The notes beneath the pieces are model-generated. The model did not search any database and was not told the origin of the DNA. It saw only the letters and a list, made by a program, of their open reading frames with translations. 64,000 nt of DNA from Candidatus Wallbacteria bacterium (GTDB taxonomy: Bacteria; Muiribacteriota; UBA6191; JACPRK01): the NCBI GenBank assembly GCA_016190005.1, contig JACPRK010000139.1:24717-88716 (forward strand), read 5' to 3'. Position numbers and translations under genes: made by a program. This document shows, in pieces, positions 28,457-51,889 of the stretch (the first letter of the stretch is position 1; each line of letters opens with the position of its first letter).

Positions 28457-28948
28457 GGGCCTCCTTCCTCGTGCTCAGGCGAGCGCCGGCGACCTCACAC
28501 CGGGGACCAGGGTACGACTGCGGCTGTCCCGGCAGCCGATTCAACCAGGGGAGACGCCCCCGGATCCGGCTGGTAACGGCCGTAACCGGGCAGCCTCAGT
28601 ACCCCGGCGAGAGCGCAAGCTTCGTCCGCATTTGCCAAAGCTCTTCCGCAAGAAGACCGACGGCGAGGATTTCGGTGCCGATCTGCCCCATGGCCGGGAG
28701 CAACCTAGTCCGTCCGTTGCTCACGATCGACCTCCTTCGGTCTGGCACGACCGCCCGGATACGGCAGTAGATAGGCATCACGCTGCGACGTTCGATGCCT
28801 CGGCGACACGCAGGCAACTCTGACTTCATGCAGTCCAGGCCGGAGCGTCCGATCGCATGTATGGACAAGCACACGGGTTCGGAGCATCGTCTGCACGCGA
28901 CTCGCTCGGGGCTGTTACCTCGCGCGGCGAGCAACGTCTTGAGCCCTG

Positions 28949-30835
28949 ATGCTGAACCTGCTCTTGAAATGCCTCCGAACTCGCGCATCATTACAACCGC
29001 CTCAGCGCCCGGCGTGGTTCGCACTGGCGCTGACCTTCTTGGCTGCAGCGCCGCATGTCGCGGCCGAACCCGTAACCGCATCGCTCGAATTTTCCCGGAA
29101 GGCTGTGCAGCCCGGGCAGACGGTGGAAGGCCTCGTCCGGCTTCGCATCCAGCCGGGCTATCATCTCTACGGCCCGGACGAGACGCAGGGCTTGCCGACC
29201 GCGGTGAAGCTCGTGGTGCCTGCCGGGGTCACAGTGAGCGCGCCGCGCTTCCCGGCGCCGCGAGAGGCCCATTACGAGGCGCTCGGCGGCAAGCTGAGGC
29301 TCTACGAGGATGATATCGCCGTCGGGTTCACGCTCGAGGTAGCGCCGGCGTTTTCCGGCAGCCGCGTAGGTGTGAGCGCGTTGCTCGATTACCAGCCCTG
29401 CACCGATCGCATTTGCGAGCGACCGCGGCAAGGCGTCGAAGCGAGTGCCGGGCTTCCGGTGGTGAGCGTGGCGGCAGCTGCGTCCGCCGACTCGCCCGAG
29501 TTGCCGGGCTCGCCGCTCAGGCAAAACCCTCTACGTGTCGCGCTCGACCGTGGCCTGTTGTGGGCGCTGCTCGCGGCGTTCGGCTGGGGCATCGCGGCCA
29601 GCTTCAGCCCCTGCGTCTATCCGATGATCCCGATCACGGTCTCCTACTTCGGCGGGCAATCGAAGTCCGGAAGCACCGCCCGCAGGGTAGCCCTCGCCTG
29701 TACTTACGTGCTCGGCATGGTCACCACCTACACGGCGGCCGGGGTGGCGGCGGCAAGGATGGGGCGAGACCTGGGAGCCGTCATGGCCAATCCGTGGATG
29801 ATCGGCTCTCTGTCCCTCGTGCTGGTCGCGCTGGCCGGATCGATGTTCGGACTGTATGTGCTTCAACTGCCGCGGGCGCTGACCGGCCGACTGCAGGCCG
29901 ACGACCGCGGTGGCTTTCTCGAAGCTTTCTTCCTGGGGCTGGTCCTGGGCTTCGTGGCGGCGCCCTGCGTGGGACCCTTCGCGGGCAGCATCCTCGTCTT
30001 CGTTGCCCAGTCCGCGGATCCGCTCGTTGGCTCCCTGACGCTGTTCAGCTTCGGCCTCGGGATGGGGATGCTCTTCATCGCCATCGCCGTGTCTTCGGGC
30101 ACCCTTGCGCTGATGCCGCGATCGGGCAAGTGGCTGCTCGCGCTGGAACGCTTCTTCGGGTACGTGCTGATCGGCATGGCGATTTACCTGGTTTCGAATG
30201 TCGTCGCGGCATCGGTGGCGACCTGGTTGTTCGGCGCCTACCTGGTCGCCGGCGGGACGTACCTGGGCGCCTTCATGCCCGTGCCAGCCGGGGCAAGCGG
30301 CTGGACACGGATGACCCAGGCCGCGGCGATCGTCATGGCTTCGACAGGCGTAGCCACCGTCATGTCGGGTACACCGTGGAACGGCGCCTTGCGCGAGGCA
30401 GCACGGCATGAGGCGGCCACGAACGGACGCGTGCTCGCCGAAGAGAGTGAAGGCATCCGCTGGTTCCGTTCACTCGAGGAGGCCAGGACCGAAGCCACCC
30501 GGACCGGCAAGCCGATCTTCGCCGATTTCTACGCAGACTGGTGTGTGCCTTGCCGCCTGATGGACCGCACGACGTTTCGAGATTCCCGGGTCGTGAAGGC
30601 CATGGAAGCGTTCATCGCCCTGAAAGCAGACTGTACGCAGCCGAAGATGCCGGCGGCCCGTTACAAGAATGACGTGTTGAAGTCCCCCGTCATGCCCTAC
30701 CTGGCCTTCTTCGGCCCGGCCGGCAACCCGCTTCCCGCCGATTCCATCGAGGGCTATACCGATGCTTCCGAGCTGCTCGCCGCGCTACATTCCGTCGCTG
30801 GGCGCTTTCAGCCACACCGGCAAGACCGCCAATGA
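28949..30835 (+). CDS. dsbD: thiol:disulfide interchange protein DsbD (alpha, CcdA-like transmembrane and thioredoxin domains)
   Basis: Periplasmic N-terminal domain with ...YQPCTDRICERP. Transmembrane core with SFSPCVYPMIPI and AAPCVGPF Cys motifs. C-terminal thioredoxin motif ADWCVPCRLMD. Confidence 0.85.
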   Translation: MLNLLLKCLRTRASLQPPQRPAWFALALTFLAAAPHVAAEPVTASLEFSRKAVQPGQTVEGLVRLRIQPGYHLYGPDETQGLPTAVKLVVPAGVTVSAPRFPAPREAHYEALGGKLRLYEDDIAVGFTLEVAPAFSGSRVGVSALLDYQPCTDRICERPRQGVEASAGLPVVSVAAAASADSPELPGSPLRQNPLRVALDRGLLWALLAAFGWGIAASFSPCVYPMIPITVSYFGGQSKSGSTARRVALACTYVLGMVTTYTAAGVAAARMGRDLGAVMANPWMIGSLSLVLVALAGSMFGLYVLQLPRALTGRLQADDRGGFLEAFFLGLVLGFVAAPCVGPFAGSILVFVAQSADPLVGSLTLFSFGLGMGMLFIAIAVSSGTLALMPRSGKWLLALERFFGYVLIGMAIYLVSNVVAASVATWLFGAYLVAGGTYLGAFMPVPAGASGWTRMTQAAAIVMASTGVATVMSGTPWNGALREAARHEAATNGRVLAEESEGIRWFRSLEEARTEATRTGKPIFADFYADWCVPCRLMDRTTFRDSRVVKAMEAFIALKADCTQPKMPAARYKNDVLKSPVMPYLAFFGPAGNPLPADSIEGYTDASELLAALHSVAGRFQPHRQDRQ

Positions 30836-31371
30836 GGTAACGGTTCGCGATGTTCAAAGAGTGTACCGTCGAGAAGCGTACCGTAGCATCCGTGACTGTC
30901 CGCGGTAGCAGGATTACCGACTGACGGCGGTGGAGGTGAACACGCGCCATGCAGTGGATTCTCGGGGACTTGTACAGGACAATGCCGGCGCAATGAGGTA
31001 GCCTACGGCGACGGGTTCTTGAGGTTGCCACTAGAGGCGCGCTTCGCCTTCAAGGGTGGCACGGCAATCAATCATTCTTACTTCGGCGACGACCGGTTCT
31101 CCGAGGACTTGGACTTCACAATCCTGGAGCAGAACCCCCTTCGAGACCGTCCGTGACGGACTCGAGCCCCTCTTCCGCACCGACCTTTCGTCCGTCCGAA
31201 AAGCAGGGAGCGTGATCTCTGTTGACAGTACCCTGCCGCAACGGCGCCGGCCGTGCATCCTCGGCTCCCCGCCGAGTTCTTCTCGCCGGCTCCCCGGAGA
31301 GCCCCGGCTGAAGCGCGACCGTGGATCGCCTTTGAGCGGGGCCTCCGGAGAAGACCTTCAGAAGAAGAATC

Positions 31372-31926
31372 TCACGAGCCGGCCTCGCGGTCGCCGCCGG
31401 AGCCGGCGGGATAGTCGTCCATGGAGCGCCTCCTGCGAGGCGGCTCCTCGGCCGGTGCCGTTGCTTCCTCCGGCGCGGGAAGCTGCTCGATCCACTCGCT
31501 GACCTGCCGGTGAGCTGCTTTCCCTTCCATCGCCCGGCGTCCCCTGCTGTCGTAGATGACGAAGTGAGGCAGCGCCCGAATGCCGTACTGCTCGGCGACG
31601 GGGGAGCTGAAATCGATGCTCCGTGAGCCGGGCCGGTCGACGTTGATCGTCCTCACGGCGATATCCGCGCGGGCCTCGACCAAGCGCTGCAGCCCGGGCG
31701 CGATAGCCCTGCAGGGCGGGCAGTTGCGGCTGTGGAAGTCGAAGATGGTCATCTTTCCCGGCACTCGATATCGCTCGATGTCGATCTCCAATCCGGCTTC
31801 TCCGATGGCTCCGATCGCCGCCCGGGAGCCGGGTCTCAGCATCTTCGCAGTGTCACCCGAGAACGCCAGGCCGCCCAAGACGGCGAAACCCGCGATCACG
31901 GTCCAGATAGGAACTCTCATTCTCAT
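31372..31926 (-). CDS. thioredoxin-like (TlpA/thiol-disulfide oxidoreductase) protein
   Basis: Signal/anchor N-terminus. Redox motif FHSRNCPPCRAIAP within a thioredoxin fold. Confidence 0.7.
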   Translation of the reverse strand: MRMRVPIWTVIAGFAVLGGLAFSGDTAKMLRPGSRAAIGAIGEAGLEIDIERYRVPGKMTIFDFHSRNCPPCRAIAPGLQRLVEARADIAVRTINVDRPGSRSIDFSSPVAEQYGIRALPHFVIYDSRGRRAMEGKAAHRQVSEWIEQLPAPEEATAPAEEPPRRRRSMDDYPAGSGGDREAGS

Positions 31927-32065
31927 ACGACCTCCTTGTCGTCGAATTCACCTGTTACGACGCCGACCAGCTTGCGACGTAACGTCCCAATCCGTTGGTT
32001 CGCGAGGGTGCCGGTTTCGTGGCCCAATCCCTGAGCCCGGCGGTCGGAGCGAATCGGCCGGGCTC

Positions 32066-33508
32066 TCATGCGGCCAGTGCGGCCGCGTTGCTCGCCGGCA
32101 GCTCCACCTGAAACTTAGTGCCGACACCTACTTCCGAGGAGAATTCGATGGTGCCACCATGGGCGACGACGTGACTCCTGGCGATCGCCAGACCCAGACC
32201 CGTGCCTGCCGGCTTTCCGTGCGTGACGAAAGCATCGAACAGTCGCGGTCTCACTTCGGATGGAACTCCCTTGCCCTCGTCAGCGACTTCGAGCAGGATC
32301 CGATGAGGTTGCGAGTCCAGGCGGACCAGGACTCGGCTGCCGGACGAGCTGGCCTCGATGGAGTTCTTGACGAGGTTGTAGACCACGCGCGCCATCTTGG
32401 TCCGGTCGGCCCGGAGGGATGCGCAGCCCTCAATCTCCGCGACGAGCTTCACACCCCGTTCATCGGCCAGCGGGCGCACGTCGCCGAGAATGTCCTCGAT
32501 GAACTCCACGGCGGCGAACTCGTCGAGATGGAGCGTCATGGAGCCCTGGCTGAAAGCCAGAATGTCGTCCGATAGCTCCGTGATCCGCTCTACCTGTTTG
32601 GCAAGGAGGTGGGCCATCGACTCTCGTCGGGGCCGTTCCTGCTGATCGGAGAGAATCCTGGTCAAGCCAAGGATGTTGGAGAGAGGACCGCGGACGTCGT
32701 GGACGATGGTGGCGACCATGCGACCCACCGAGGCCAGCCGCTCGTGAAGGTGGACGCTCGCGACGGCTTCTTGCATTGCATGGAAGTGTCGGGCTAACCG
32801 GCCGAGCTCCGCCGGCGCGAACAACGGCAGCGGAGGACCGGCGCCACCGTTCGCCGCGGCGTCCATCGCTTCGGCGAGCTGACTCAAGGGGCGAACCAGC
32901 ACGCTGGAGAGGATGCCGCCGAGGAGGATCGCGACGACGAGCCCGGCCAGAGTGACGGTTGCGAGCTCCAGGGCGTCGCGCCGCAGGATCGACCGGATTT
33001 CGCCGGCCTTGTAGTCGGCCTCGAGCAGGGCCACGGTACGCCCGCTGCTGTCCTTTACTGGAGCGTATGCGGACATCCACTCGCCGTACTGATCTTCGTA
33101 GATGCCTGTGCTGGCTGTCACCCCTTGCTCGAAGATGGCGAGCATCTCGGGCCTCAGCTCGTACGGCATGCCTATCTGGGCTTCGTGGCGGGTCCTCACG
33201 ATGAACCGCGTCTGGGAGCCCTCGCGCACCAGCGTGTAGATCTCGGTGTTCAGGCCGTTGCCTTGCTCAATCCGACGCAAATAGCCGGCGAGCTTCCTGA
33301 AGTTGGCGCAGCTGCGGTCGCGGCACTTGGCGAGCTCGGCATGGGCCTCACCGTCGAGGGCTTCCGCCGCCGTCACGGCTATCGAGAGTAGCCGGTCCTG
33401 GGCGAGTCGCGTGAGATGTTGCGACTCGCGACGCAGGTGCAGCAGCCCGGTCGTGACGGCGAAGAGAAGTAGCAGCCCTGCGCTCAGCCCAACAATCCTG
33501 ATATGCAT
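32066..33508 (-). CDS. sensor histidine kinase, paralog 1, intact
   Basis: Transmembrane helix, periplasmic sensor region, second transmembrane helix. H-box IVHDVRGPLSNI. HATPase_c N, G1 and G2 motifs (VYNLVKNSIEA, DEGKGVP, GTGLGLAIARS). Confidence 0.85.
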   Translation of the reverse strand: MHIRIVGLSAGLLLLFAVTTGLLHLRRESQHLTRLAQDRLLSIAVTAAEALDGEAHAELAKCRDRSCANFRKLAGYLRRIEQGNGLNTEIYTLVREGSQTRFIVRTRHEAQIGMPYELRPEMLAIFEQGVTASTGIYEDQYGEWMSAYAPVKDSSGRTVALLEADYKAGEIRSILRRDALELATVTLAGLVVAILLGGILSSVLVRPLSQLAEAMDAAANGGAGPPLPLFAPAELGRLARHFHAMQEAVASVHLHERLASVGRMVATIVHDVRGPLSNILGLTRILSDQQERPRRESMAHLLAKQVERITELSDDILAFSQGSMTLHLDEFAAVEFIEDILGDVRPLADERGVKLVAEIEGCASLRADRTKMARVVYNLVKNSIEASSSGSRVLVRLDSQPHRILLEVADEGKGVPSEVRPRLFDAFVTHGKPAGTGLGLAIARSHVVAHGGTIEFSSEVGVGTKFQVELPASNAAALAA

Positions 33509-33571
33509 TCTCCTGCTCCTTGGCTGGATGGGAAACCACAGACGATGCGTCGACTCCTAGACCTGCTTCCG

Positions 33572-33853
33572 TCATTGCTCCTCGACCGGCAGGGCACCAT
33601 CCAGAACGACGCCGTTCTCGACCTGATCCGAGAGGACGTCGAGCGTGAGGAACGTCACGCAAGTTCCGTCCAGCAGGGTCGGATCCGCGAGGAGGGCGTC
33701 TCTGACGCGCTGCCGCACCCCGCGGGTGACTTCCGTGACGGTCGCTCCAATGACACAGAGACCGGGAATCGTGGGGCAGCATGCGAGCACGGGCGATCCG
33801 GGCTTTACCCGAATGAAGAGAGGTACGCGTAGAGGTTTGCTCGAAAGGGTCAT
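33572..33853 (-). CDS. small HicB-like / UPF0150-fold protein, orphan paralog B
   Basis: MTLSSKPLRVPLFIRVKPGSPVLACCPTIPGLCVIGATVTEVTRGVRQRVRDAL is clearly homologous to 26534-26758. It lies just upstream of histidine kinase paralog 1. Confidence 0.45.
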   Translation of the reverse strand: MTLSSKPLRVPLFIRVKPGSPVLACCPTIPGLCVIGATVTEVTRGVRQRVRDALLADPTLLDGTCVTFLTLDVLSDQVENGVVLDGALPVEEQ

Positions 33854-33883
33854 CGCCACGGTCGTTTGGCCCTCGGGTCGCAC

Positions 33884-34486
33884 CTATTCGGACTCCTTCA
33901 AGAGGTCTTCGACTATCCCCTCGACAACCTCCGGCCGGTAGAAGTCCAGGTGGCGTAGCCGGCCTTGTCGATCCAGAAGGGCCACGTAAGGGGTCCCTCG
34001 CGCGCCATAGGACTCGAAAGTAGCCGTCAACTTTCGATCGATGGCCACGGGGAAATTGAACTGATTGCGCTTGACGTACGCCTGAATCCTGTCTGGCGTC
34101 TGGCTGGCCTGATGCTCGAAGGCCACTGCGAGACCGATGACCTGGAGACCTTCTCGCCCGTACCTCTGCTGCATCTTCACGATGTGGGGGTGCGCGGCGT
34201 GGCAGCCCGGACAGATGATCTGGAACATGTCGAGCAGCACGACTTTGCCCTTGAGTTGCTCGAGCGTCAACGGGGAGCCGGCGACCCACTGTTGAACCTG
34301 AAGGACGGGGGCCGGAACGGACTCGGGCACGGGCACGTAGATGCTGCCTCCAGTAGGCGGGGCCGCCTCCGGAGGTGACTGCCGTGTCGAGCCGGAGCCG
34401 GCATCCTGGGCCGGCGCCGTGATCGCTAGCAGCAGGCCCAGCAACGTCGCTTGGAGGCCACGAGAGAAAATCTGGTGTGCAATCAC
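33884..34486 (-). CDS. periplasmic TlpA-like redoxin
   Basis: Signal peptide. LLDMFQIICPGCHAAHP CxxC motif within a thioredoxin/AhpC-TSA-like fold. Confidence 0.7.
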   Translation of the reverse strand: MIAHQIFSRGLQATLLGLLLAITAPAQDAGSGSTRQSPPEAAPPTGGSIYVPVPESVPAPVLQVQQWVAGSPLTLEQLKGKVVLLDMFQIICPGCHAAHPHIVKMQQRYGREGLQVIGLAVAFEHQASQTPDRIQAYVKRNQFNFPVAIDRKLTATFESYGARGTPYVALLDRQGRLRHLDFYRPEVVEGIVEDLLKESE

Positions 34487-34731
34487 GGGAACCTCCTCAA
34501 CGGTGAGGAGCAGCTCGGGACAGCCACTCCGGCGCCGGCTCGTTCGGCCTCTGCCGCTCGTGGAGATTGACGTGTTCGCAGTGTCCGAGGTAACGACACT
34601 TCAGCCGACTACCGGTGCGTCCTCCGAGCGGAGTGCGAATCTCGACGCGCGATGCGTAGACGGGCGCGATGCCGTGGCCACAAGGACGGTGCGCGCCATA
34701 CCAGGAGCAACGGACAGCAGTTGGTTCAGTT

Positions 34732-35979
34732 TCATAGGCCGCAGCAAGAGTCCCCCTGCTGGGTCGCGCCAGCTTCCAGCAGCGTGGCCTGGTAGCCGGC
34801 CTGGCGGACAGCCTCTCTGAGAGCCTGGATGTTTGGCTTCGGACCGGCGGCCGCGAAACCGACCCGGGCGGTCTTCGTGGGGTAATCGACTGCGGCATTG
34901 AGGACCCCCGGAACGCTCAGGAGAGCCTTCCGAACGTGGGCGGTGCACGCTTCGCAGGACATGCCGCCGATGGACAGCGCCTGCTGCCCGGCGGCGACAC
35001 CGGCCGCCGGCGCGGCGGGCGCGTCGCTGATTCCAATGAGACTGCCCGCATAGTGGGGAAACGCTGCGCCTACGATGGCAAGGAAAGTGGCGAGCCAGAG
35101 CCCCATGCGCCCGAGGCGCCGGGTCCTGGGCGCGGGGACGGCACATGCCTCACCCGATGCACATGCCCGTTCACGGGAGTAAGCGAAGTAGAAGCCCGCG
35201 GCCAGAAGCAGTCCGGTGAGCGTCAGAAAGAGCGGGCGCCATTGCTCGAAGACGGCCCCGGCTCCGGCAGCAGACAGACCCAGGCCGACGAGCATCAGCG
35301 GCAGCCAGCAACACGCGGAGGCCACGACGGCGGCAACGACGGAGCCGGCAAGCAGCCAGGATGTCTTCGGGCCGGTCTGGGCGCGGGAGTCTGGCGCGAC
35401 GGTAGACGATTCCTGCCCGGAGACACGGCAGCACGCCTGAATCACCGAGGGTTCTTCCGAGAGAGCCACAGCCGGCCCTCGCTGGTCGGAGGCGACGGAA
35501 TCGGAGCGCGGATCTCCGTGAACCGCCAGCTGTTGACGGACGACCGTTCCCACGTTGCCCAGACAGCATGAGCCTTGCGGGTTCTCGCGCTCGCAGGCGC
35601 ACTGTCCCTCCTTGACCTTCTGCCGGATGTCGTCCGGCACGGTGCTCTTTCCCGTACGGAGAACCTCCTCGCCTATCGAGGCCGCCGAGTGGTTGAAGCA
35701 GTAGCAGACCGGGCAAGAGAGATCGCTCTCTTTCTGCCAGACAGGGACGGCCACGTCGGAGCGAAGAAAGCGCGCCCCCTGGACGGCCCCGAAGTAGACG
35801 ATGTCGCAATTCTGGGCTGGACAGAACCGATACACGCCGCTCCCGACCCTGCCTCGGCAGGGCTCCCTCAAAAGGGAGCTCAAGGTCTCGTTTGCGACGG
35901 TCTTCCCTCGGGTGCCGCAACCGGGACAGTCGGCGGGCGGGCCGCCTGGGGCAGTGATGGAGCAGCACTTTTCGGACAT
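34732..35979 (-). CDS. fusion: N-terminal Cys-rich metal-binding domain + MerT-like transporter + C-terminal MerP-like HMA domain
   Basis: The N-terminal ~150 aa hold 17 Cys (CC, CPGC, CPVCYC, CAC, CC). Transmembrane region with a vicinal Cys pair, ASACCWLPLMLVGLG (MerT-like). C-terminal GMSCEACTAHVRKALLSVPGV is the HMA GMxCxxC motif. The protein ends ...GDSCCGL. Confidence 0.65.
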   Translation of the reverse strand: MSEKCCSITAPGGPPADCPGCGTRGKTVANETLSSLLREPCRGRVGSGVYRFCPAQNCDIVYFGAVQGARFLRSDVAVPVWQKESDLSCPVCYCFNHSAASIGEEVLRTGKSTVPDDIRQKVKEGQCACERENPQGSCCLGNVGTVVRQQLAVHGDPRSDSVASDQRGPAVALSEEPSVIQACCRVSGQESSTVAPDSRAQTGPKTSWLLAGSVVAAVVASACCWLPLMLVGLGLSAAGAGAVFEQWRPLFLTLTGLLLAAGFYFAYSRERACASGEACAVPAPRTRRLGRMGLWLATFLAIVGAAFPHYAGSLIGISDAPAAPAAGVAAGQQALSIGGMSCEACTAHVRKALLSVPGVLNAAVDYPTKTARVGFAAAGPKPNIQALREAVRQAGYQATLLEAGATQQGDSCCGL

Positions 35980-36094
35980 CTTCAGAACCTCCTTACCGAT
36001 GCGCCCCGTACAGTACTGGCATCGGCAACATCCACATCCCCGGGTAGGGGATATGGTCGCCGGGATGAAAAAAAGAGGAGAGGGCGGCGGGGGC

Positions 36095-36403
36095 TCATGT
36101 TTGCTTCAACAGAGTTGCGAGGACCTGGCTGACCTTTTCGAGGCGTTCGTCGCGGCCGCCTTTCATGCAACTGTCCACGCACGCCTTGAGCTCATGCTCC
36201 AACAGATTGGCTGCGACCTGGTTGAGCGCAGCGCGCACCGCGGCCACCTGCAGGAGAATCTCGTCGGCGCAGCGGTGAGCCAGCACCATGGTCCGCAGTG
36301 AACGCACGTGGCCCTCGATGCGCGCGAGACGGTCGGCGAGCCGCTTCTGGGCGTCTTCGTCTAGATAGGGTTTCGGAACCGGTTTCAGGTGGGACTTGGC
36401 CAT
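36095..36403 (-). CDS. csoR: CsoR/RcnR-family metal-sensing transcriptional repressor
   Basis: GAGGAA RBS. MAKSHL...LARIEGHVRSLRTMVLAHRCADEILLQVAAVRAALNQV...HELKACV matches the DUF156 fold and its metal-ligand positions (C, H, C). Confidence 0.8.
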   Translation of the reverse strand: MAKSHLKPVPKPYLDEDAQKRLADRLARIEGHVRSLRTMVLAHRCADEILLQVAAVRAALNQVAANLLEHELKACVDSCMKGGRDERLEKVSQVLATLLKQT

Positions 36404-36428
36404 TGCGTTCCTCACATCTTGTAGTATA

Positions 36429-36447
36429 TATCCCCCCAGGGGGGATA
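36429..36447. promoter_or_regulatory. perfect inverted repeat TATCCCCCC-A-GGGGGGATA; predicted CsoR/RcnR-type operator
   Basis: 9-bp arms with a 1-bp spacer, about 26 nt upstream of the csoR-like start codon. The G/C-tract palindrome is characteristic of CsoR/RcnR operators. Confidence 0.55.
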
Positions 36448-36636
36448 GCAACCCCTTCTCCTTTCCCACGAAACCGAACCCGAGCGCCTTGGCGAGGTGG
36501 CCGAGCAAAGGGGCTCATTCGTCGTCGCCGCTGGTTAGTGTCGGCTCCAGGGATCGCGCTCGGGCGTTACCCGCACGACCGAAGCTCGTCAGTCCTGCTT
36601 GGGAACTACCTGGGGCACGCCGAAAGGAGGCGCTTC

Positions 36637-37614
36637 ATGCAAACACCCTCTGAGCAGAGCCTCTCGAGTAGAGTGCGAACCCTGCTTCGCGCCGCCATCT
36701 TGTCGCTCGTTCTGGTGGCAGCCCTGCTGCACAGGTTTGCACCAGGGGCGCTCGCGGTCGGTTTGGATCTGACGGATCTGCGAGTCCCTCGAGCGGAGCT
36801 GAGAGGCGGCGGCCCACCGAAGGATGGGATTCCGTCGCTGACGGACCCCGCGGTCGTCAGCCCCGAGCAGGTGGATTTCCTGCAGGAAGACGACTGGGTC
36901 CTCGGTGTCGAGCTCGGTGCCCAGGCGCGGGCCTATCCGCTGAAGCTGCTGACCCAGCACGAGGCCGCCAACGACGTGGTGGGCGGCCAGCCGATCGTCG
37001 CTACCTACTGACCGCTCACCGAGAGCGGGGTGGTCTACTCCGCGCGGCTCGACGGTATGCGGCTGACGTTCGGCATCTCCGGACTCCTCTACCGCAGCAA
37101 CGTCGTGCTTTACGATCGCAGAAGCGGCAGCCTCTGGTCCCAGCTCGCGGGCGCCGCGATATCGGGCAAGTACAGTGGCCGGCAGCTCGTGGAGCTCCCG
37201 TCCCTGGTGACGACCTGGGCGAGCTGGCGCCGTGCACGCCCCGACTCGTCGGTCGCTCTGGCTGCAAGTCTCCGGTACTCGGCCGACCCATACGCCGACT
37301 ATTGGGGCTCGTCCGAAACGATGTTCGACGTGGGCCCCATCGACACGCGATTGCCGGCCAAGGCATTGGTGTTCGGCGCCGTCGTGGGGAAACTCGCGAA
37401 GGCGTATCCACTGAGCGAGTTTCCGTCGACCAACCAAGTTATGCGGGACCGAATCGGCAACGTGAAGGTTTGGCTTTCTCGGGGCGAGACCTCCAGGGAC
37501 TTTCGGATGACGGACTTGACGGGCCGGCGAGTGAGCGGATCGGTCATGTACTGGTTCGCCTGGTCGAAGTTCCATCCGGACACTGCCCTCTGGGCCGGGC
37601 CGGCCGGGCAATGA
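36637..37614 (+). CDS. DUF3179-family protein with in-frame UGA (putative selenocysteine) at the first Cys of the conserved TYCPLC motif
   Basis: AAAGGAGG RBS before ATG 36637. Signal/anchor N-terminus. ...LLTQHEAANDVVGGQPIVATY-[TGA 37009-37011]-PLTESGVVYSARLDGMRLTFGISGLLYRSNVVLYDRRSGSLWSQL continues in the same frame as ORF 37030-37614. A hairpin follows 13 nt downstream. Confidence 0.65.
37025..37043 (+). other. putative bacterial SECIS-like hairpin (stem GCGGGG/CUCCGC, loop UGGUCUA)
   Basis: Starts 13 nt 3-prime of the in-frame UGA. The loop contains GGUCU. Confidence 0.45.
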
Positions 37615-37874: not shown

Positions 37875-38678
37875 TCACTTGCCACCCTTGCCGGTTTCAG
37901 AGCCGGCAAGCCTCAGCGCTCGCAGCGCATCTACCACGTCGGCGGGCTCGGAGCGCTGGGTGTAATCCGCGCTCACGAATCGATAGCGGATAACGCCCTC
38001 GCGATCCAGAACGAACGTCCCCGGCACCGGAAGCTCCCCGGAGCGGTCCGCATTGAACTTCGCGAGATCGATGCCGAAGCCGCGGTACATCTCCGCCAGC
38101 TTGGCGGGCACCTGGAAGACGAGACCGAACCCACGCGCCACCTGGTTGCCCAGGTCGCTGAGGACCTCGAAATCCAGCTTGAGCTTCTCCTGCGTCATGA
38201 GCGCGAAGTCGGGCTTCTCGGGCGAGATTGCAACCAGAGAGCCCCCGGCTGCCCGAATGTCGGGCAGGGCTTGTTGCAGAGCATCCAGCTCCGCGTTGCA
38301 GTACGGTCACCAATGCCCTCGGTAGAACGCGACGACCACCGGGCCCTTCGCCAGCAATTCGACCGAGGATACGGTCTTACCGCTCGCGTTAGGCAAGCGA
38401 AAGCCGGGCGCCCTCTGCCCGACCTTCAGGCTCCGTTCCTCGACGCCCGTGCGCCGAACTTCGTCCAGGGCGGCTCGCGCCACCGCGGCCTTCTCCGCGG
38501 GCATCTTCTTCGCCGACTCGCTTCGCATGGCGTCCAGCTTCGAGGCCAGCGGCCGCGGATCTGCCTCGGCCGCCGCGGCCACTGCGCCGGCCGCCAGTAA
38601 CGCCGAAAGCAAAATTCGACTCGAGAGCCCAGTCGTTGTGTCGGTTCCTATCTGCCTGATGGCTTTCGACATGAACAC
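37875..38678 (-). CDS. periplasmic peroxiredoxin-like (AhpC/TSA-Redoxin family) protein with in-frame UGA (putative selenocysteine) in a W-U-P-Y-C motif
   Basis: Signal peptide. ...GPVVVAFYRGHW-[TGA 38309-38307]-PYCNAELDALQQALPDIRAAGGSLVAISPEKPDF...TFVLDREGVIRYRF. ORFs 38307-38678 and 37875-38198 are the same frame, and the region between them is open. A hairpin follows 12 nt downstream. Confidence 0.7.
38276..38294 (-). other. putative bacterial SECIS-like hairpin (stem GCGGAGC/GCUCUGC with one G-U pair, loop UGGAU)
   Basis: Begins 12 nt 3-prime of the UGA in the Prx-like gene. Confidence 0.4.
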
Positions 38679-39003: not shown

Positions 39004-40476
39004 ATGCAGCGGAGAATCGTCGGGCTCAGCCTGGGTCTGATGACGTTCTTTGCGGTCGCGACTGGGGTTTTTCACTATCTGCGAACGTCCACGGACCTCG
39101 AAGCCTTGGCTGACCAGCGCCTGCGGTACATCGCCGCCACGGCCGCGGCGGGCCTGGACGGCGATGCCCACGCGGAGCTCAACAGCTGCCTGGACAATCA
39201 GTGCCCCAACTACGCGAAGCTCACCGAGTACCTTCGAGCCGTCCAGACATAAAATGATCTCTCGACGGAGGTGTACACCCTCGCCCGAGAAGGCGACCGA
39301 ACGCGGTTCGTCTTGAGGACCCAGCACGAAGCCGACTTCGGAGTGTCTTACGATCTGCGTCCGGAGATGTTGGCGACGTTCGACGAGGGCAAGGTCGTCA
39401 CAACCGGTGTCTACTCGGATCGCTACGGCTCCTGGTTGTCGGCCTACGCGCCCGTCCGGAACAAACAGGGGAGGGTCGTCGCCTTGCTGGAAGTCGACTA
39501 CAAGGCCGAGGAGCTTGCTGCCATTCTCCGAAGAGACGCGGCGCAGTCGGCGGTGGTTTGGCTCCTGGGGCTGACGGTCACGGGTCTGCTAGCCCTGCGT
39601 CTTTCGCGGCAGATCGCCGAGCCGCTGACGCATCTGACCGCCGCGGTCGACGCCGCCGCATCCGGAGATGAAAGTCATGAGCTGCCGACCGATGCACCGG
39701 CGGAAATCGGGCTCCTGGTCCGCCGCTTCGGCGAGATGCGAGACGCCGTTGCCAACGCCCGGCGGCAGGAGCGGCTGGCGGTCGTGGGGCAGATGGCCGG
39801 AACGATGATCCACGACCTGCGAGGCCCGCTCACGGTGCTCATGGGAATGACCGAGCTGATGCAGGACGAAGAGGACGGCATCGCGCGAAAGCAGCTCGGT
39901 GTGCGCGTGTTCGAGCACATCAATCGCATCGAGGCGATGGCCCGAGACGTTCTCGACTTCTCGCGGGGTGTGTCGAACATGGAGCGAAGCCGGTTCCGCG
40001 CCGCCTCGGTGCTGGAGTCCGTGGCTGCGGACCTTGCCTCGATTGCGACTAGAAAGGGCGTCGTTCTGCGCGTAGACCCCGAGTGGGACGGGCTCGTCTG
40101 GGGGGACCAGGAGAAGCTGCTCAGGCTCGCCCACAACCTCGTGAAGAACGCGATCGAGGCGACGCCAGCAGGAAGGCGAGTGGTGGTGCGAACGCGCGCC
40201 GGCGCCGGGCGATGGCAGCTTCTCGTGGAGGATGAGGGCACCGGGATTTCACCGCAGGTGGCAGCGAGGCTTTTCGAGCCGTTCGCGACTCATGGAAAGT
40301 CGGGAGGTACGGGGCTGGGTCTGGCGATGGTGAAGAGTGTCGCCGAGACTCACGGAGGAAGCGTCACTCACGCGGCGCGGCCGGGCGGCGGCACGGTTTT
40401 CAGGGTCGAGCTGCCGATCGATCGACGCGAGCCTGGCGGGCAGAAGCAGGAAGCCCGTGAGCAAAAGGCCGCGTGA
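39004..40476 (+). pseudogene. sensor histidine kinase, paralog 2, interrupted by an in-frame TAA at 39250-39252
   Basis: 39004-39252 and 39271-40476 are co-linear with paralog 1: ...YLRAVQT-TAA-NDLSTEVYTLAREG against ...YLRRIEQGNGLNTEIYTLVREG. The stop falls where paralog 1 has Gly/Gln. Downstream H-box and ATPase motifs are intact. Confidence 0.55.
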
Positions 40477-40608: not shown

Positions 40609-41196
40609 TCAAGCCGCGGGACGTTTCCTGCGAAGCCGTTTGCCAGCCTCCGGCTCCGCCCAATCGGACTCCAGCTCCACGCCGAGGCCGAGGGCCAGTC
40701 GATTGACGAAGTTGAAGTACGCTGTCACCGCGGCAATGTCGTGAATCGACCGGTCATCGTGCCCGATCTGACGCAGCAGCTCCACGTCGGCTCTCCTCAT
40801 CTCGGCAGGCGTGCGGGTGAGTTTCACCGCGAAATGCAGCATGGCCAGATTAGCCGGCTCCAGACGTGCGGTGCGGAAGTCGCGAGCGATCGCCTCGACG
40901 AGATCCTCGTCGCGGGTGAGACGGAGAAGGACCTCTCCGTGATGCTGCAGTCAGTAGTGGCAGTCGTTGGCCTGCGAAACCACGACCGCGATCATCTCGC
41001 GCTGGCGGCGCGTGAGCGGCGAGCCTCCGAACATCAATGCCTTGTAGAGCGCCATGTGCCCCTCCATCCCTTCCGGATGGACGCCGCTGACGGCCAGGAT
41101 GGCGGGGGCGCTGGCCTGGTCGCCCAGGAGACGTTTGTACGTCTCCTTCAAACGGACCGGGGCTTCGGATGGTTGAATCTCCGTTATCCACGACAT
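40609..41196 (-). CDS. AhpD-like / carboxymuconolactone-decarboxylase-family peroxidase-related protein with in-frame UGA (putative selenocysteine) in a C-H-Y-U motif
   Basis: ...MIAVVVSQANDCHY-[TGA 40953-40951]-LQHHGEVLLRLTRDEDLVEAIARDFRTARLEPANLAMLHFAV... ORFs 40951-41196 and 40609-40842 share a frame, which is open across the gap. A hairpin follows 10 nt downstream. Confidence 0.7.
40921..40940 (-). other. putative bacterial SECIS-like hairpin (7-bp Watson-Crick stem ACGGAGA/UCUCCGU, loop GGUCCU)
   Basis: Begins 10 nt 3-prime of the UGA in the AhpD-like gene. The loop contains GGUC. Confidence 0.45.
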
Positions 41197-41546
41197 AGTC
41201 TATCCTTTCACTCCGGAGGTGACGCCGCGGGCCCGAGCGCGGCGCTCATCGTGTCCGCAGCGAGCGCAGTCGGCTCACGCTCCAGACGCCCCGAGGCGCT
41301 CGAGGTAACGGCTGTCGGCTCGGCGTGCTACAGACCGTCGCCGCGCGGCATCGGTCCGGCCGGCATCGATATCCTGCTCTCGGAGGCACGGCTTCTGCTC
41401 GCAGGCGTTACCCAGGCCCGAGCCGGGCGTCCAGACCAGTGGAGCACGCGAACCTGCCGTTCCCGGCGGCGATCTCTTCGGAGGCGGGCCCATACGGTAG
41501 AGGAGTCGACTTGAGCAGAGCCAACAGCGACCGTGCGACATTCAAG

Positions 41547-42254
41547 ATGGCCAGCCTGGCGATTGCACTTGCCGCGCTGCTGGCGGTGGCAGCGAGTTTG
41601 CCCATTGGCGCGTGGCTCTTGCGGACAGTGGAGTGGATCCGATCGGCTGGCGTGGCCGGCGCGCTCGCGTACGGCGCGATTTACGTGCTGGCCACGGTCT
41701 TGATGCTGCCGGGTTCCGCGCTGACACTGGGGGCCGGATTCGCTTACGGTCCCCTCTTGGGGACCCTTCTCGTTTCGCCCGCGAGCGTGCTCGGCGCGAC
41801 GCTGGCCTTTCTACTGGGACGGTCCGCCGCTAGAGAATGGGTGGTAGGCAAGATGACGGCCCATCCGCGGTTCGGAGCGGTGGACCGCGCCGTCGGCGAT
41901 CGTGGCTTCTTGCTGGTGATGCTGCTGAGACTATCGCCCTTGTTTCCGTTCAACTTGCTCAACTACGCGCTGGGCGCAACTCGCGTGAGGCTGCGCGACT
42001 ACGTGGTGGCATCCTTCGTCGGGATGCTTCCGGGCACGTTCCTGTACGTTTACCTGGGCTCCCTCGTCACCAGCGCAGGCGAGCTGCTCGGCGGTCAGCG
42101 GCCGGCGGCGGGGCCCTGGGGCAGGGGGCTCTACTGGGTCGGTCTGTTCGCAACTGTCGCTGTCGTGGCCTTCGTGACACGCTTCGCGAGACAGGCGCTG
42201 GATCGAGCTCTAGAATCGGCTGATGCCCGAACTTCCGAAGAGACGAAGTCATGA
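41547..42254 (+). CDS. DedA/TVP38/TMEM64-family membrane protein, copy 2, intact
   Basis: MASLAIALAALLAVAASLPIGAWLLRTVEWIRSAG...LPGSALTLGAGFAYGPLLGTLLVSPASVLGATLAFLLGRS...RLSPLFPFNLLNYALGATRV. Paralog of 11103-11790. Confidence 0.75.
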   Translation: MASLAIALAALLAVAASLPIGAWLLRTVEWIRSAGVAGALAYGAIYVLATVLMLPGSALTLGAGFAYGPLLGTLLVSPASVLGATLAFLLGRSAAREWVVGKMTAHPRFGAVDRAVGDRGFLLVMLLRLSPLFPFNLLNYALGATRVRLRDYVVASFVGMLPGTFLYVYLGSLVTSAGELLGGQRPAAGPWGRGLYWVGLFATVAVVAFVTRFARQALDRALESADARTSEETKS

Positions 42255-42265
42255 ATCCGAACCCG

Positions 42266-42610
42266 GATCACCCTACAAGTTCACTCACGCAGCCGACGTG
42301 ATGGCCCGAATCGTGATCGCCAACGCCCTGTTCGGCAGCCGTGGCTCGGGCAGTGCTCTGACGATCCCGTGGTGCACCTGCATCGATCCCGAGATCGCCC
42401 ACGTGGGATTGTACGAGGCCTACGCGCGCAAGCGCGGCCTCGCCGTAGACACCTACACTCAGCCGCTGTCGGAGGTGGACCGCGCCATTCTTGACGGCGA
42501 GGAGGAGGGGTTCGTGCGAGTGCACGTACGGCAGGGATCCGACACGATCCTGGGCGCCACCGTCGTGGCGCGCCATGCCGGGGAGATGATTTCGGAGCTG
42601 ACGCTAACGA
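42266..42610 (+). pseudogene. C-terminal fragment of a pyridine nucleotide-disulfide oxidoreductase (dimerisation domain only)
   Basis: KFTHAADVMARIVIANALFGSRGSGSALTIPWCTCIDPEIAHVGLYEAYARKRGLA...ILGATVVARHAGEMISELTLT aligns with residues ~365-490 of the 14480-16033 protein. It has no N-terminal FAD/NAD domains, and the frame degenerates after ELTLT. Confidence 0.6.
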
Positions 42611-43262
42611 GGAAGATCTCGTCGGGCCGTGCCTGGACCGGCTGCAACAATTTGCGCCGGGCACGGAGATTCTCGTTGTCGACGGCGGCAGTACCGACTC
42701 CACGCGCGAGCGGGTGTCTGCTCGGCCCTGGACGACGTTGATTTCTGCGGGAAGGCCTCCCCGCGGCATGCAGATGAACGCTGGAGTTCACGTCACGCGC
42801 GGCGACATCCTGCTACTCCTACACGTCGATATGGAGCTGCCCCCGGACGCTGTGACTCAGATCGAGAAGGCGACCGAGGGTCCCCAAGTCGTGGGAGGCG
42901 GGTTCCGCAAGCGCCACCGCGAAGCCCCGCCGTTGCTTGTCCTCCAGGACTGGTGGCTGAACACGTTGCGTTCGGGACTTCAGCGCCATCTGGTCGGGAC
43001 CAACGGCATCTTCGTGAGGAGAAGCGTCTTCGAGCACTTGGGAGGATTCAGAGAGTGGTCACTGCTGGAAGACGTGGAGTTCCCGGACCGACTGCGGGAC
43101 CTCGGTCGGGTCGCGTTTTTAACGGGTCCAGTGCTGGTCTCGGCGCGCAAGTATCTGCGGCATAGGACGCTGAGGCAGCGTCTCACGAATGCCCGAGTGA
43201 TGGCGGGATATGGGTGGCTGGGCATTCACCCCGAACAGCTCGCTTCGATCTGCGGGGCCTAG
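42600..43262 (+). CDS. family-2 glycosyltransferase (TIGR04283-like), N-terminally truncated
   Basis: ...EEDLVGPCLDRLQQFAPGTEILVVDGGSTDSTRE...GMQMNAGVHVTRGDILLLLHVDMELP...GIFVRRSVFEHLGGFREWSLLEDVEFPDRLR is a GT2 fold. The first ~15 residues and any start codon are missing, replaced by the oxidoreductase fragment. Confidence 0.55.
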   Translation, partial: DANEEDLVGPCLDRLQQFAPGTEILVVDGGSTDSTRERVSARPWTTLISAGRPPRGMQMNAGVHVTRGDILLLLHVDMELPPDAVTQIEKATEGPQVVGGGFRKRHREAPPLLVLQDWWLNTLRSGLQRHLVGTNGIFVRRSVFEHLGGFREWSLLEDVEFPDRLRDLGRVAFLTGPVLVSARKYLRHRTLRQRLTNARVMAGYGWLGIHPEQLASICGA

Positions 43263-49123: not shown

Positions 49124-49966
49124 TCAACCCTTTCGACCGCTTTTTCCCGGCTCGGGTAACGCCCCCGTGCGCGCACGAACGAGGACATAGCCGCCATGCG
49201 GCTCCCGCCAGATCACGACCTCGCACGGAGATCTCGACGCGGCCGGAGACGCAGGGTGCACCACCCGGCGGCTCGTCAGGGAACCGACGCCGAAATCCTC
49301 GAGCCGCAGTTGAAACAGAGACTCCGGGCCGCCCGGTCCCTGCCAGTACGTGTAGGCCACCGGGTGGCTGCCCAGCCGGCACGAGCGGCCGCCCATGAGC
49401 GTGTGCCCGGGTCCGAGTGCCGGGAAGCTCACGGGGAAGCCCATCGAGCTCGACAAGAACTCGGCGACCTGCCGGGGGTCGGAGCCCTTCACCTGCAGAT
49501 GGGGCGTGTTCATGTGATCCTGGGTCGCCAGCAGGGCCAGCGTCTGAAGCGTGGCCTCCTTGTCCGACCGGAGGCTCGAGATCCCGAACCAGACCATCAG
49601 GACCACCAACGCGATCGACGACGCCAGCGCGAGTCGGCGCCCGGCGAAGAGGCCCAGCGACCTCATGCGTCCAGGCGGTCGCGAATCCAGTCTCTGCACC
49701 TGCGGTTCCGCTCCGGCCTCGGGGGGGGCGCATTGGTCCGCAAGCAAGAGCAGCCGCGGCACCAGTCCGGGGGGCACTTCGACCTGCCTCAGCGCGATGC
49801 GCAAGGCCTCGTCCCCACGGATGAGCTCGAGCCATTCCTGCCGGGCCCACTCCGGACCGCGCGCCACGTCTTGCTCCAGTTGACGGCGCACTGGATCATC
49901 GGGCGGCAAGACCGAAGCCTCGGCCATCGCTTGCCGCAGAAGCTGTCGATCGTCGCGGCCGCTCAT
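49124..49966 (-). CDS. anti-sigma factor-like protein with periplasmic C-terminal domain
   Basis: Overlaps the sigma-factor stop by 4 nt. A central transmembrane helix LALASSIALVVLMVWFGI. Position and architecture are typical of ECF anti-sigma factors. Confidence 0.5.
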   Translation of the reverse strand: MSGRDDRQLLRQAMAEASVLPPDDPVRRQLEQDVARGPEWARQEWLELIRGDEALRIALRQVEVPPGLVPRLLLLADQCAPPEAGAEPQVQRLDSRPPGRMRSLGLFAGRRLALASSIALVVLMVWFGISSLRSDKEATLQTLALLATQDHMNTPHLQVKGSDPRQVAEFLSSSMGFPVSFPALGPGHTLMGGRSCRLGSHPVAYTYWQGPGGPESLFQLRLEDFGVGSLTSRRVVHPASPAASRSPCEVVIWREPHGGYVLVRARTGALPEPGKSGRKG

Positions 49967-50523
49967 GGACTCCTCCGCTTCAAGGTAAGAACGTTACCCC
50001 GTTTGCCGGCGCTGTCGTCAAGCCGCTGTCGCAAGAAGCTACGGGCCCGGTGGACCCGAGAGAGCACCGTGCCCAGGGGCAGGTCGAGCTCTCGGGCCGT
50101 CTCCCGGCAACTGACTCCCAGTAACAGGACCATCAGAAACGGGAGCTTGAACCGATCGTCCATGGCGTCGAGTGCCGCTTGCAGCGGCTCCGAGCATTCC
50201 GAATCACCCTCCGACGCGTCCCGTGTGGGCGTGTCGGCGTCCTGGAGCAGCTCGACACTGTCGTCGACCTGGGGACGCCGTCCGAGATCGCGCAGCAGGT
50301 GCGCGTGGCGGAATCGCAGGATTCGGAATAGCCATGCCCGAGCGGAGGACGGTTCCCGCAGATCCGGCAGCGAACGCCAGGCTTCGGTGAAGGTCTCCTG
50401 GACCAGATCCTCCGCTGTTTCGCGGCGGCCCGTCAATCGGAAGGCGATCCGGAAGAGCTCCTCGGAGTGGTCGCGGACGAGCCGTTCGAAGAGGGGCCGG
50501 AGCTCGTTGGGAACGGTCTGCAT
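49963..50523 (-). CDS. ECF-type RNA polymerase sigma factor
   Basis: DLVQETFTEAWRSLPDL...RAWLFRILRFRHAHLLR (region 2) and FLMVLLLGVSCRETARELDLPLGTVLSRVHRARSFLRQRL (region 4). Confidence 0.8.
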   Translation of the reverse strand: MQTVPNELRPLFERLVRDHSEELFRIAFRLTGRRETAEDLVQETFTEAWRSLPDLREPSSARAWLFRILRFRHAHLLRDLGRRPQVDDSVELLQDADTPTRDASEGDSECSEPLQAALDAMDDRFKLPFLMVLLLGVSCRETARELDLPLGTVLSRVHRARSFLRQRLDDSAGKRGNVLTLKRRSP

Positions 50524-50539
50524 TTCGCCACCGGCCCTT

Positions 50540-51889
50540 CTACTTTTCTCCCGCCATGCAGTCGATCAGCGCCTCACGAACCGCGGCCCCGCGGGCGACT
50601 TGAAGCCGCGTCCAGGCGACGACGGAGTCGAACTCTCGCTCGCGGAGCCGGCCCCTGGCTTCGATGACGGCGTTCTCGGCTTGCAATCTGTCGAGAAACG
50701 TACCCAGTCCCGCCCGGTACTGGCTGTCGCTCACCTTCAGTGCGGCGCGGGCTTGCTCGAGCTCCTCGAGATCGACTTCTTGCTGCTGCCGCAGGTTCTC
50801 CATGTCCGCCAGGGCCTGGTTCACCTCCAGCGTCGTCTGCTGCCGGACGTCCAGCAGGCGCGCTTCGGCTTCGAGAAGCCGGGCCTGGGCCTGGGCGATA
50901 CGCTCGCCGTAAACCGAGCTGACATCCAGGGGCAGCTTGACGGCGACACCGCCTGCCCACTCGAGATCGCCATCGGGGGATCTGGCGGTATTCGCCGCCC
51001 CACCCGAGAGGAAGCCGACGACCTGGGGTTTGCGAGTCGCTCGGACTGCCTGAACCTCGGCTCGGGCCGCGTCGACGGCCTCTTGCGCCGCAACGACCTC
51101 TGGGCGGGCCAACTGCGCGGCCTGAAGCAGACTCGCCGCCGAGGGCAAGGACCGAGGAGCCTGTCGAACCGGAAGCAGCTCGCGTGGAGATGAGGTCGAT
51201 TCGCTGCCGGCGAGCGAGGTTTCACCGAGCGCGCGCCTCAAGGCGCTCCACGCCTGCGACCTGCGATTCTCGGCGGCCGAGACGAGCCCCCGGGCCCGGG
51301 CGACCTGGATCTTCGCGAGGCTCGCGTCAATGCCGGTTCGAAGCCCGGCCCGCAAGTAGCTCTCGGCCTGGGCGGCGAAGGCCTGCCGATCCCGCAGCAG
51401 ATCGCGATAAATGGCGAGCAGGGCATCCTGCTTGAGCATCTCGACGAAAGCGCGGGTCGCTTCCAGGCCGACCTGGCGCCGTGCCGCCTCGGTTTCGCTT
51501 CGAGCCGAGGCGGCCTGGTAGGAGAGCGCTCGATCCCGGCTGCGGAGCTCGCCGGAGTCGTAGAGGCGCTGTGAGATGTTCACGCCGGCGGCGTTGTCGG
51601 CGACGAGTTGGGAGGAGACGATCCCTTGCACGCCCAGGCCAGCGCCCTTGGCGCCGGAGAGGCCGTCGACATGCACGGCCTGCAACTCCACCTGGGGCCG
51701 GGTCGCACCTTCGACCTCGCGGCGACGGGCCTCGACTCCCTTCACGCGAGCCTGCATCCCGGCGACTCGCGGATGGTTCAGCTCGGCCAGCGCGACCGCC
51801 TCGAGAATCGACAGCGGGGGAGCGGCCGCGCCTGTCGGCATGGGCGCCGCGGCCACCATCGCTACGATCGCAAGAGCTCTCCGAAACAT
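50540..51889 (-). CDS. TolC-family outer-membrane efflux protein
   Basis: Signal peptide. Two repeated coiled-coil/beta-barrel halves with the LxxAxxxxPxL and RxxYxxGxxxxLD-like patterns typical of OEP. Confidence 0.7.
   Translation of the reverse strand: MFRRALAIVAMVAAAPMPTGAAAPPLSILEAVALAELNHPRVAGMQARVKGVEARRREVEGATRPQVELQAVHVDGLSGAKGAGLGVQGIVSSQLVADNAAGVNISQRLYDSGELRSRDRALSYQAASARSETEAARRQVGLEATRAFVEMLKQDALLAIYRDLLRDRQAFAAQAESYLRAGLRTGIDASLAKIQVARARGLVSAAENRRSQAWSALRRALGETSLAGSESTSSPRELLPVRQAPRSLPSAASLLQAAQLARPEVVAAQEAVDAARAEVQAVRATRKPQVVGFLSGGAANTARSPDGDLEWAGGVAVKLPLDVSSVYGERIAQAQARLLEAEARLLDVRQQTTLEVNQALADMENLRQQQEVDLEELEQARAALKVSDSQYRAGLGTFLDRLQAENAVIEARGRLREREFDSVVAWTRLQVARGAAVREALIDCMAGEK

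Follow-up and report, generated by a model that had tools for sequence, protein, structure and literature searches.

A probable AhpD-like selenoprotein gene, with a putative SECIS hairpin, in a Candidatus Wallbacteria bacterium

The AhpD-like gene, its in-frame UGA and the downstream hairpin

The stretch of DNA analyzed here (hereafter the window) comprises 64,000 nucleotides from a Candidatus Wallbacteria bacterium (GenBank assembly GCA_016190005.1, contig JACPRK010000139.1, positions 24,717 to 88,716 of the forward strand), and its minus strand carries, at window positions 40609..41196, a gene for an AhpD-like protein of the TIGR01926 type that contains a single in-frame UGA. We consider that this is very probably a genuine AhpD-like selenoprotein gene, in which the UGA at codon 82 is decoded as selenocysteine (Sec). 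Judged by its translation and profile match the gene is complete: read from 41196 to 40609, it forms one 196-codon frame (195 residues and the stop) from an ATG at 41196-41194 to a terminal TGA at 40611-40609, and the only stop codon inside it is the TGA at 40953-40951, codon 82. This codon is preceded by TGC-CAC-TAC (C79-H80-Y81) and followed by codons for L-Q-H-H, which gives the motif N-D-C-H-Y-U-L-Q-H-H; the wider translation reads VVVSQANDCHY before the TGA and LQHHGEVLLRL after it. The C-H-Y-[TGA] motif claimed in a first-pass annotation of this DNA is thus exact in the translation, and all the gene and hairpin elements named there are present, although the strand on which they lie (minus) had been left unstated. 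A putative Shine-Dalgarno-like AAGGA can be read at 41203..41207 (minus), 6 nt upstream of the ATG; the N-terminus, MSWITEI, agrees with the homologue consensus MAWIxxI, and the protein ends in a basic tail (...GKRLRRKRPAA) that is non-conserved in the alignment. The mechanical list of open reading frames (ORFs) shows the gene as two pieces, one of 81 residues at the N-terminus and another of 77 residues that begins at a later ATG.

Immediately downstream of the UGA, within the coding region, lies a putative bacterial selenocysteine insertion sequence (SECIS) hairpin (40921..40940, minus), which occupies nt 14-33 counted from the U of the UGA. It consists of a 5′ arm ACGGAGA (40940-40934), a loop GGUCCU (40933-40928) and a 3′ arm UCUCCGU (40927-40921), and the gap between the UGA and the stem is exactly 10 nt; hence, the perfect 7-bp stem, the loop and the spacing that had been described from the letters alone are all borne out. 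RNAfold adds a closing G.U pair (8-bp stem, loop GUCC) and gives the structure -10.4 kcal/mol. A published bacterial SECIS model allows loops of 3-9 nt and upper stems of 4-16 bp, with a G in the first two loop positions, a UGA-to-loop distance of 16-37 nt and an energy of -7.5 kcal/mol or lower (PMC13188914). The window hairpin lies within all four of these constraints, with a 6-nt loop that opens with GG, a stem of 7 bp, a spacing of 17 nt and the energy given above.

Profile searches, run with residue 82 (U) entered as C, placed the protein in the NCBIfam family TIGR01926 ('peroxidase-related enzyme') at 142 bits against a cut-off of 81.8, residues 3-174 corresponding to profile positions 2-174 of 178 in one continuous stretch that extends across the TGA. 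The AhpD core domain TIGR00778 (46 bits over its 51-position core) and the Pfam carboxymuconolactone decarboxylase (CMD) domain PF02627 were also matched above their cut-offs, and the carboxymuconolactone-decarboxylase/AhpD core proposed earlier is thereby confirmed. The AlphaFold model of the read-through product (predicted local distance difference test score, pLDDT, 92.5; predicted template-modelling score, pTM, 0.87) forms a single all-helical AhpD-like domain, to which Foldseek assigned template-modelling (TM) scores of 0.80-0.83 against 3c1l, 2pfx, 2prr and 6k40; judged by this model, an 81-residue product ending at codon 82 would lack more than half of the domain. Our searches additionally matched the solved Cys-type structures 2pfx, 3c1l, 2prr, 2oyo and 6k40 with E-values of 6e-31 to 3e-19, and in every printed structure alignment residue 82 corresponds to the second Cys of N-x-C-x-Y-C. 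In an alignment of 31 sequences, E67, C79, Y81 and H86 are invariant and residue 82 stands opposite Cys in almost every row. The conserved second Cys of CxYC therefore falls exactly on the TGA column and not elsewhere, the point for which the first-pass annotation had proposed a family alignment as the check.

The active site can be traced codon by codon on the minus strand. Cys79 (40960..40962), an invariant column of the alignment, opens the C-x-x-U redox motif, and the predicted Sec82 (40951..40953) occupies the second-Cys column of CxYC, where relatives carry a TGA at the same codon. Two further invariant positions are predicted proton-relay residues, namely Glu67 (40996..40998), 12 residues before Cys79, and His86 (40939..40941), 4 residues after Sec82; the last two bases of the His86 codon are also the first two bases of the 5′ arm of the hairpin. 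The proton-relay sets described for PA0269 (Glu36, Cys48, Tyr50, Cys51, His55) and for Mycobacterium tuberculosis AhpD (Glu118, Cys130, His132, Cys133, His137) provide the reference (PMC3141380). The spacing E-x11-C-x-Y-U-x3-H of the window protein is identical to both. Cys133 of the M. tuberculosis enzyme is reportedly (Koshkin et al., in work of 2003) the attacking nucleophile.

Several narrower assignments were tried and rejected. The (seleno)protein family NF041238 (AhpD_rel_CFYUT) reached 49.2 bits against a cut-off of 175 and matched only through the C-terminal part of its 357-position profile, and the '(seleno)protein' families NF053654 and NF041047 scored far below their cut-offs. Canonical AhpD of the AhpC reductase type was also set aside, as the match is confined to the core, the TM-scores to 1gu9, 1knc and 1lw1 are 0.44-0.54, and the flanking genes are not ahpC.

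The UGA column and the hairpin among homologues

Our search of 5.8 billion proteins returned 331 matches, and even the closest of these share only about 50% identity with the window protein. Among the best 120 of these 331, column 82 is occupied by Cys in 110 cases, by 'W' in six and by Leu in one. The best match, P0001, is itself stored with a 'W', and its DNA (locus L001) reads TGT CAC TAC TGA ATT ATT CAT CAT; hence, this 'W' is a UGA translated by the gene caller. Database entries with Trp at the Sec column are P0001, P0013, P0015, P0030, P0069 and P0089. Genes of the AhpD-like family thus end up mistranslated in public annotation, and in other records cut short: standard gene callers yield either an 81-residue fragment, as in a record of the Logan assemblies, or Trp at the UGA, as in the database homologues, while the correct annotation of the window gene would be a 195-residue selenoprotein.

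We then consider the UGA at the level of DNA. The codon pattern V-S-x-x-N-x-C-x-Y-TGA-x-x-H-H was scanned on both strands of one genome per species (185,579 species, 596 Gb), for which we estimate, assuming equal base frequencies, that about nine matches would arise by chance. Full-length homologues with TGA at exactly the equivalent of codon 82 were found in the genomes of at least 120 species. At nearly all scanned loci the frame continues for about 100 residues past the TGA and encodes a full-length homologue, whose identity to the window protein is 38-54% in a comparison of 121 loci that takes in L001 and L002 (the latter a locus from a Logan assembly). The hosts among the matches listed are mostly uncultured Gemmatimonadota, Acidimicrobiia and other Actinomycetota, Planctomycetota, Acidobacteriota, Chloroflexota, Halanaerobiales and others. 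In a combined BLAST ranking, eight of the ten nearest relatives of the window protein are of the Sec type; judged by sequence identity, the protein is a divergent member of the family, about 50% identical to the nearest Sec- or Cys-type relatives found.

The clearest support for the hairpin comes from comparing Sec-type genes with Cys-type ones. The 45 nt after the UGA were folded and scored for 114 Sec-type homologues, and the control was drawn from a metagenome scan with the same codon pattern carrying TGY in place of TGA, of which 94 true homologues were kept. Most Sec-type homologues possess a hairpin at the same place, with loops GGUCU (40 cases), GGC, CGGGU or GGG. The mean folding energy of nt 11-36 is -9.35 kcal/mol in the Sec-type set versus -3.65 kcal/mol in the Cys-type set (Mann-Whitney p = 7e-23; the difference persists in every G+C bin), and the median z-scores for this segment are -1.58 and -0.07, respectively. 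Stems of 5 bp or more that carry a GG or GU loop starting at nt 17-24 occur in 93/114 Sec-type genes versus 9/94 Cys-type genes. Moreover, when the 46 homologues of one register were aligned, 95.7% of cells were paired, compared with at most 49% when the partners were slid by 1-3 columns; within this set the pair 17-27 appears as GC, CG, AU and GU, and the pair 15-29 changes from CG to UA in five sequences by way of the synonymous third base of a His codon, the one that corresponds to His86.

The hairpin also leaves its mark on the protein. Over the first 12 codons, the Sec or Cys codon is followed mostly by HH-[GR]-x-G-L-R-R in Sec-type sequences and mostly by HH-x-E-A-L in Cys-type ones (L003-L122 and L123-L242), the former because Gly-Leu is encoded by the GGUCU loop; the homologue survey clearly illustrates how a SECIS can shape the protein that it lies in. 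A few Cys-type genes with the G-L motif (L149, L160, L200 and L221) retain the hairpin, which in these genes may be a remnant of a former SECIS.

Selenocysteine decoding and the weighing of alternatives

The window was screened for further coding frames broken by a single TGA, and only one such gene held up. This second selenoprotein candidate, an AhpC/TSA (peroxiredoxin-like, Prx-like) gene at 37875..38672 (minus), lies 2.3 kb from the AhpD-like gene; its in-frame UGA (38309-38307) stands in the motif FYRGHW-U-PYC, Pfam AhpC-TSA matches at 96 bits across the UGA, and an N-terminal hydrophobic segment resembles an export signal or a membrane anchor. Its own hairpin, GCGGAGC-UGGAU-GCUCUGC (38294-38276, minus; 7 bp, nt 16-34, -13.8 kcal/mol), starts 12 nt after the UGA, and among its homologues L006 and L079 have TGA at the same codon while L176 has Cys. 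Prx-like proteins with UxxC are a known selenoprotein family whose genes are reported to cluster with AhpD-like genes (PMC2398784, PMC13188914). In L006 (positions 6379-7400), a metagenome-assembled genome of Thermoanaerobaculia, the Prx-like and AhpD-like TGA genes are convergent, their ends about 18 nt apart, an arrangement that echoes this published clustering. The presence of a second UGA-containing redox gene nearby suggests that the organism decodes Sec, and together the two candidates mark it as a probable selenocysteine user. Two other TGA pairs were discarded in the screen: the one at 22426-24294 represents two adjacent genes (HvfC-like and a Ser/Thr kinase), and the one at 9524-10138 is not convincingly coding.

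Several observations weigh against our interpretation. NCBIfam scans of about 50 ORFs revealed no selA, selB or selD in the 64-kb window, and neither a tRNA scan nor Rfam revealed a tRNA-Sec there, an absence that carries little weight for the genome as a whole. The hairpin taken by itself is not beyond chance in this DNA of 66% G+C, and its support comes from the homologue comparison: although the 26-nt local segment is well separated from mononucleotide shuffles (z = -3.49), against dinucleotide shuffles the 39-nt context gives z = -0.76, with 42/200 shuffles folding equally well, and the 56-nt context gives z = -0.06. In the latter (40898-40953, minus) the minimum-energy structure is a competing long-range fold of -15.2 kcal/mol, in which GAGGUCCU, comprising the loop and the 3′ side of the hairpin, pairs with AGGAUCUC about 25 nt downstream. 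The window hairpin is also slightly out of step with its family: in place of the usual G22-G23-U24 its loop has G21-G22-U23, one nt nearer the UGA, and the 3′ arm is displaced downstream by one codon. Only 5/114 homologues have this pairing register, L115 among them. The Sec- and Cys-type sets that were compared come from different collections, with mean G+C of 0.67 and 0.54, and differ in their distance from the query as well. A tblastn search of 13 window neighbours against 240 homologue loci (120 Sec-type, 120 Cys-type) revealed no general synteny, the exceptions being L058, with VTT/DedA together with a flavin adenine dinucleotide (FAD) oxidoreductase, a glycosyltransferase and a DUF3179 gene, and L006 and L079, with Prx-like genes. 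Finally, substrate and physiological role have not been established for any TIGR01926 protein.

We considered whether the gene might be a pseudogene or truncation, in which a Cys codon (TGC or TGT) has mutated to TGA, translation yields no more than 81 residues and the sequence beyond is in decay. A single base change from TGC would suffice for this, and both the lack of Sec machinery in the window and a hairpin that alone is within chance would fit; however, the downstream 92 residues follow the family profile in one continuous stretch with the invariant residues kept, at least 120 species have a TGA at this codon with about 100 conserved residues after it, the positioned GG-loop hairpin goes with TGA and not with TGY, and a nearby second gene shows the same arrangement of UGA and hairpin. 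We therefore regard decay of the gene as very unlikely. A one-base mistake made in sequencing or assembling a normal TGC or TGT codon is more readily suspected in DNA from an uncultured source, for which a single other assembly was available for comparison. That assembly, the Logan assembly of SRR12113422 (L002, a 975-bp contig holding the N-terminal fragment), is nevertheless identical, including the TGA and the hairpin, though SRR12113422 may be the same or a related sample; an error would moreover leave the hairpin and the many TGA homologues unexplained, and we hold it to be extremely improbable.

It is likewise highly improbable, in our assessment, that the UGA is read as Trp, Cys or Gly without selenium, through a reassigned code, a suppressor or a near-cognate tRNA. 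The W that gene callers have placed in six database homologues could be taken in its favour, as could an odd 87-nt 'tRNA-Cys(GCA)' that ARAGORN calls in the window (50130-50216, minus); the latter, also considered and rejected as a SelC-like candidate, lies inside the ORF of an extracytoplasmic function (ECF) sigma factor (49963-50565; TIGR02937 at 77 bits) and has no Rfam call. TGA ends 44/61 complete ORFs in the window, and the genes it terminates match their family models to the last position. Since TGA is an ordinary stop here, and genes end with their profiles, a reassigned code (code 4 or code 25) is excluded. Furthermore, a UGA at a redox Cys position together with a SECIS-type hairpin is the signature of Sec.

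Decoding as Sec thus remains our preferred explanation, and the overall interpretation of the first-pass annotation is supported. From the anatomy of the element and the comparison with homologues, we propose a bacterial SECIS role for the hairpin at nt 14-33: as the ribosome nears the UGA, SelB.GTP.Sec-tRNA(Sec) would bind the G-G-U of its apical loop, and Sec would enter the A site instead of release factor 2. The product would be a 195-residue cytoplasmic thiol/selenol oxidoreductase of the TIGR01926 type. By homology, Sec82 would replace the second Cys of C-x-x-C just before the N-terminus of a helix and form a reversible selenenylsulfide with Cys79, while Glu67, Tyr81 and His86 may serve as the proton relay, as in AhpD. 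Such an enzyme might reduce an oxidised partner protein of the peroxiredoxin type, or else a small peroxide or disulfide, and could be re-reduced by the cellular thiol system; compared with a thiol, the selenol would offer a lower pKa and higher nucleophilicity.

Gene neighbourhood and comparison with known systems

The AhpD-like gene looks monocistronic. A sensor histidine kinase gene (39271-40476, plus) converges on its 3′ end and separates it from the Prx-like gene, a gene for a VTT/DedA-type membrane protein (41325-42254, plus) diverges from its 5′ end, and a promoter and terminator scan around the gene found none. As the neighbourhood is not conserved among homologues, the context gives no firm function. 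Of a pyridine-nucleotide disulfide oxidoreductase, the region 41325-42741 (plus) encodes only the C-terminal dimerisation domain, which comes after the VTT/DedA ORF and in a different frame; in L058 the homologous VTT domain forms one fusion protein (765 aa) with a complete oxidoreductase, and by this comparison the window copy looks internally deleted or frameshifted. A DUF3179 ORF (37012-37614, plus) covers only profile positions 66-229 of 292 and may be shortened at its 5′ end; DUF3179 homologues lie near the AhpD-like gene in L058, L062 and L030.

An arsenosugar-type gene set is scattered across four loci of the window. It includes a TIGR04282 glycosyltransferase (10335-11102, minus; 200 bits, cut-off 134), an ORF of about 830 residues that fuses a radical S-adenosylmethionine (radical-SAM)/SPASM part to an ArsM-type methyltransferase (11810-14362, plus), a PRK06370-type FAD oxidoreductase (14480-16045, minus; 781 bits) and a TIGR04283-like glycosyltransferase (42495-43262, plus; 157 bits, below the cut-off of 182). 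The last of these lies 1.3 kb from the AhpD-like gene, despite the fact that the AhpD-like protein itself was rejected as a member of TIGR04169, the arsenosugar biosynthesis-associated peroxidase-like protein (22.8 bits, cut-off 120). A further cluster of copper, mercury and redox-stress genes spans 22426-36514 and includes thioredoxin-like/ResA-like ORFs; within it we found an HvfC-like partner (23401-24294), the bufferin-type maturase BufB (24230-25546; 334 bits), a multinuclear non-haem iron-dependent oxidative enzyme (MNIO) of the kind that matures ribosomally synthesised and post-translationally modified peptides (RiPPs), DsbD (28943-30835), a CopZ-N-terminal/MerTP fusion (34732-36105) and a CsoR/RicR-type repressor (36095-36514).

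Two more specific roles can be envisaged from these surroundings. The AhpD-like protein and the putative Prx-like selenoprotein close by might be the two halves of a redox relay based on selenium, a possibility raised by the 2.3 kb between the two genes and by the adjacent, convergent arrangement of both Sec genes in the Thermoanaerobaculia locus L006. Alternatively, it could be a peroxidase-like accessory of the arsenosugar-type gene set, as the VTT/DedA and FAD oxidoreductase genes, the TIGR04282/TIGR04283 glycosyltransferases and the radical-SAM/ArsM fusion, partly shared with the Planctomycetota locus L058, would suggest. Even taken together we consider these two roles unlikely; if either were true, it would give the uncharacterised TIGR01926 family a defined partner. 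Since the AhpD-like family, its CxxU motif and the recoding mechanism have already been described, the window gene opens no new biological question: it adds one divergent sequence to a widespread family and is useful mainly for correct annotation.

The reference bacterial SECIS, that of Escherichia coli fdhF, is a coding-region hairpin directly 3′ of the UGA, with a loop G-G-U-C at about nt 21-25. The window hairpin resembles it in lying just 3′ of the UGA within the coding region and in its apical G-G-U-C, but this putative element has no bulged U in the upper stem and its loop is one nt nearer the UGA. With M. tuberculosis AhpD (1knc, 1gu9), an AhpC-reducing, lipoamide-dependent adaptor, the window protein shares an identical relay spacing (E67, C79, Y81, U82, H86); unlike it, the protein matches over the core only, at TM-scores of 0.44-0.54, and has no operonic ahpC, as the only peroxiredoxin-like gene nearby encodes a hydrophobic N-terminus and lies beyond the histidine kinase gene. 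In the Cys-type TIGR01926 structures 2pfx, 3c1l (Mlr4105), 2prr, 2oyo and 6k40 (DR1765), the active-site string N-x-C-x-Y-C-x-x-x-H is kept; all five have Cys at the second position, where Sec is predicted here. DR1765 of Deinococcus radiodurans is the nearest studied relative; its deletion mutant is reported to be sensitive to H2O2, with complementation depending on the CxxC cysteines (PMC8945050).

The closest known system is the AhpD-like selenoprotein family itself. AhpD-like CxxU proteins have been catalogued as selenoproteins since 2005. They were first recognised as a new family in the Sargasso Sea metagenome (27 sequences, COG2128; PMC1088965, Table 3), ranked fourth in abundance among prokaryotic selenoprotein families in the Global Ocean Sampling (GOS) data, with 299 sequences (PMC2398784), and appear in a 2026 catalogue as 'AhpD-like protein, TIGR01926, CxxU' (PMC13188914); the earlier claim that this is a documented Sec family is therefore well founded. 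The window gene departs from typical members in its rarer register and in its 6-nt loop GGUCCU, in place of the usual GGUCU, CGGGU or GGC. It nevertheless agrees with the family in every feature that could be tested here, namely a TIGR01926 match above cut-off, CxxU with the predicted Sec at the second Cys, and a SECIS-type hairpin with a G-rich loop downstream.

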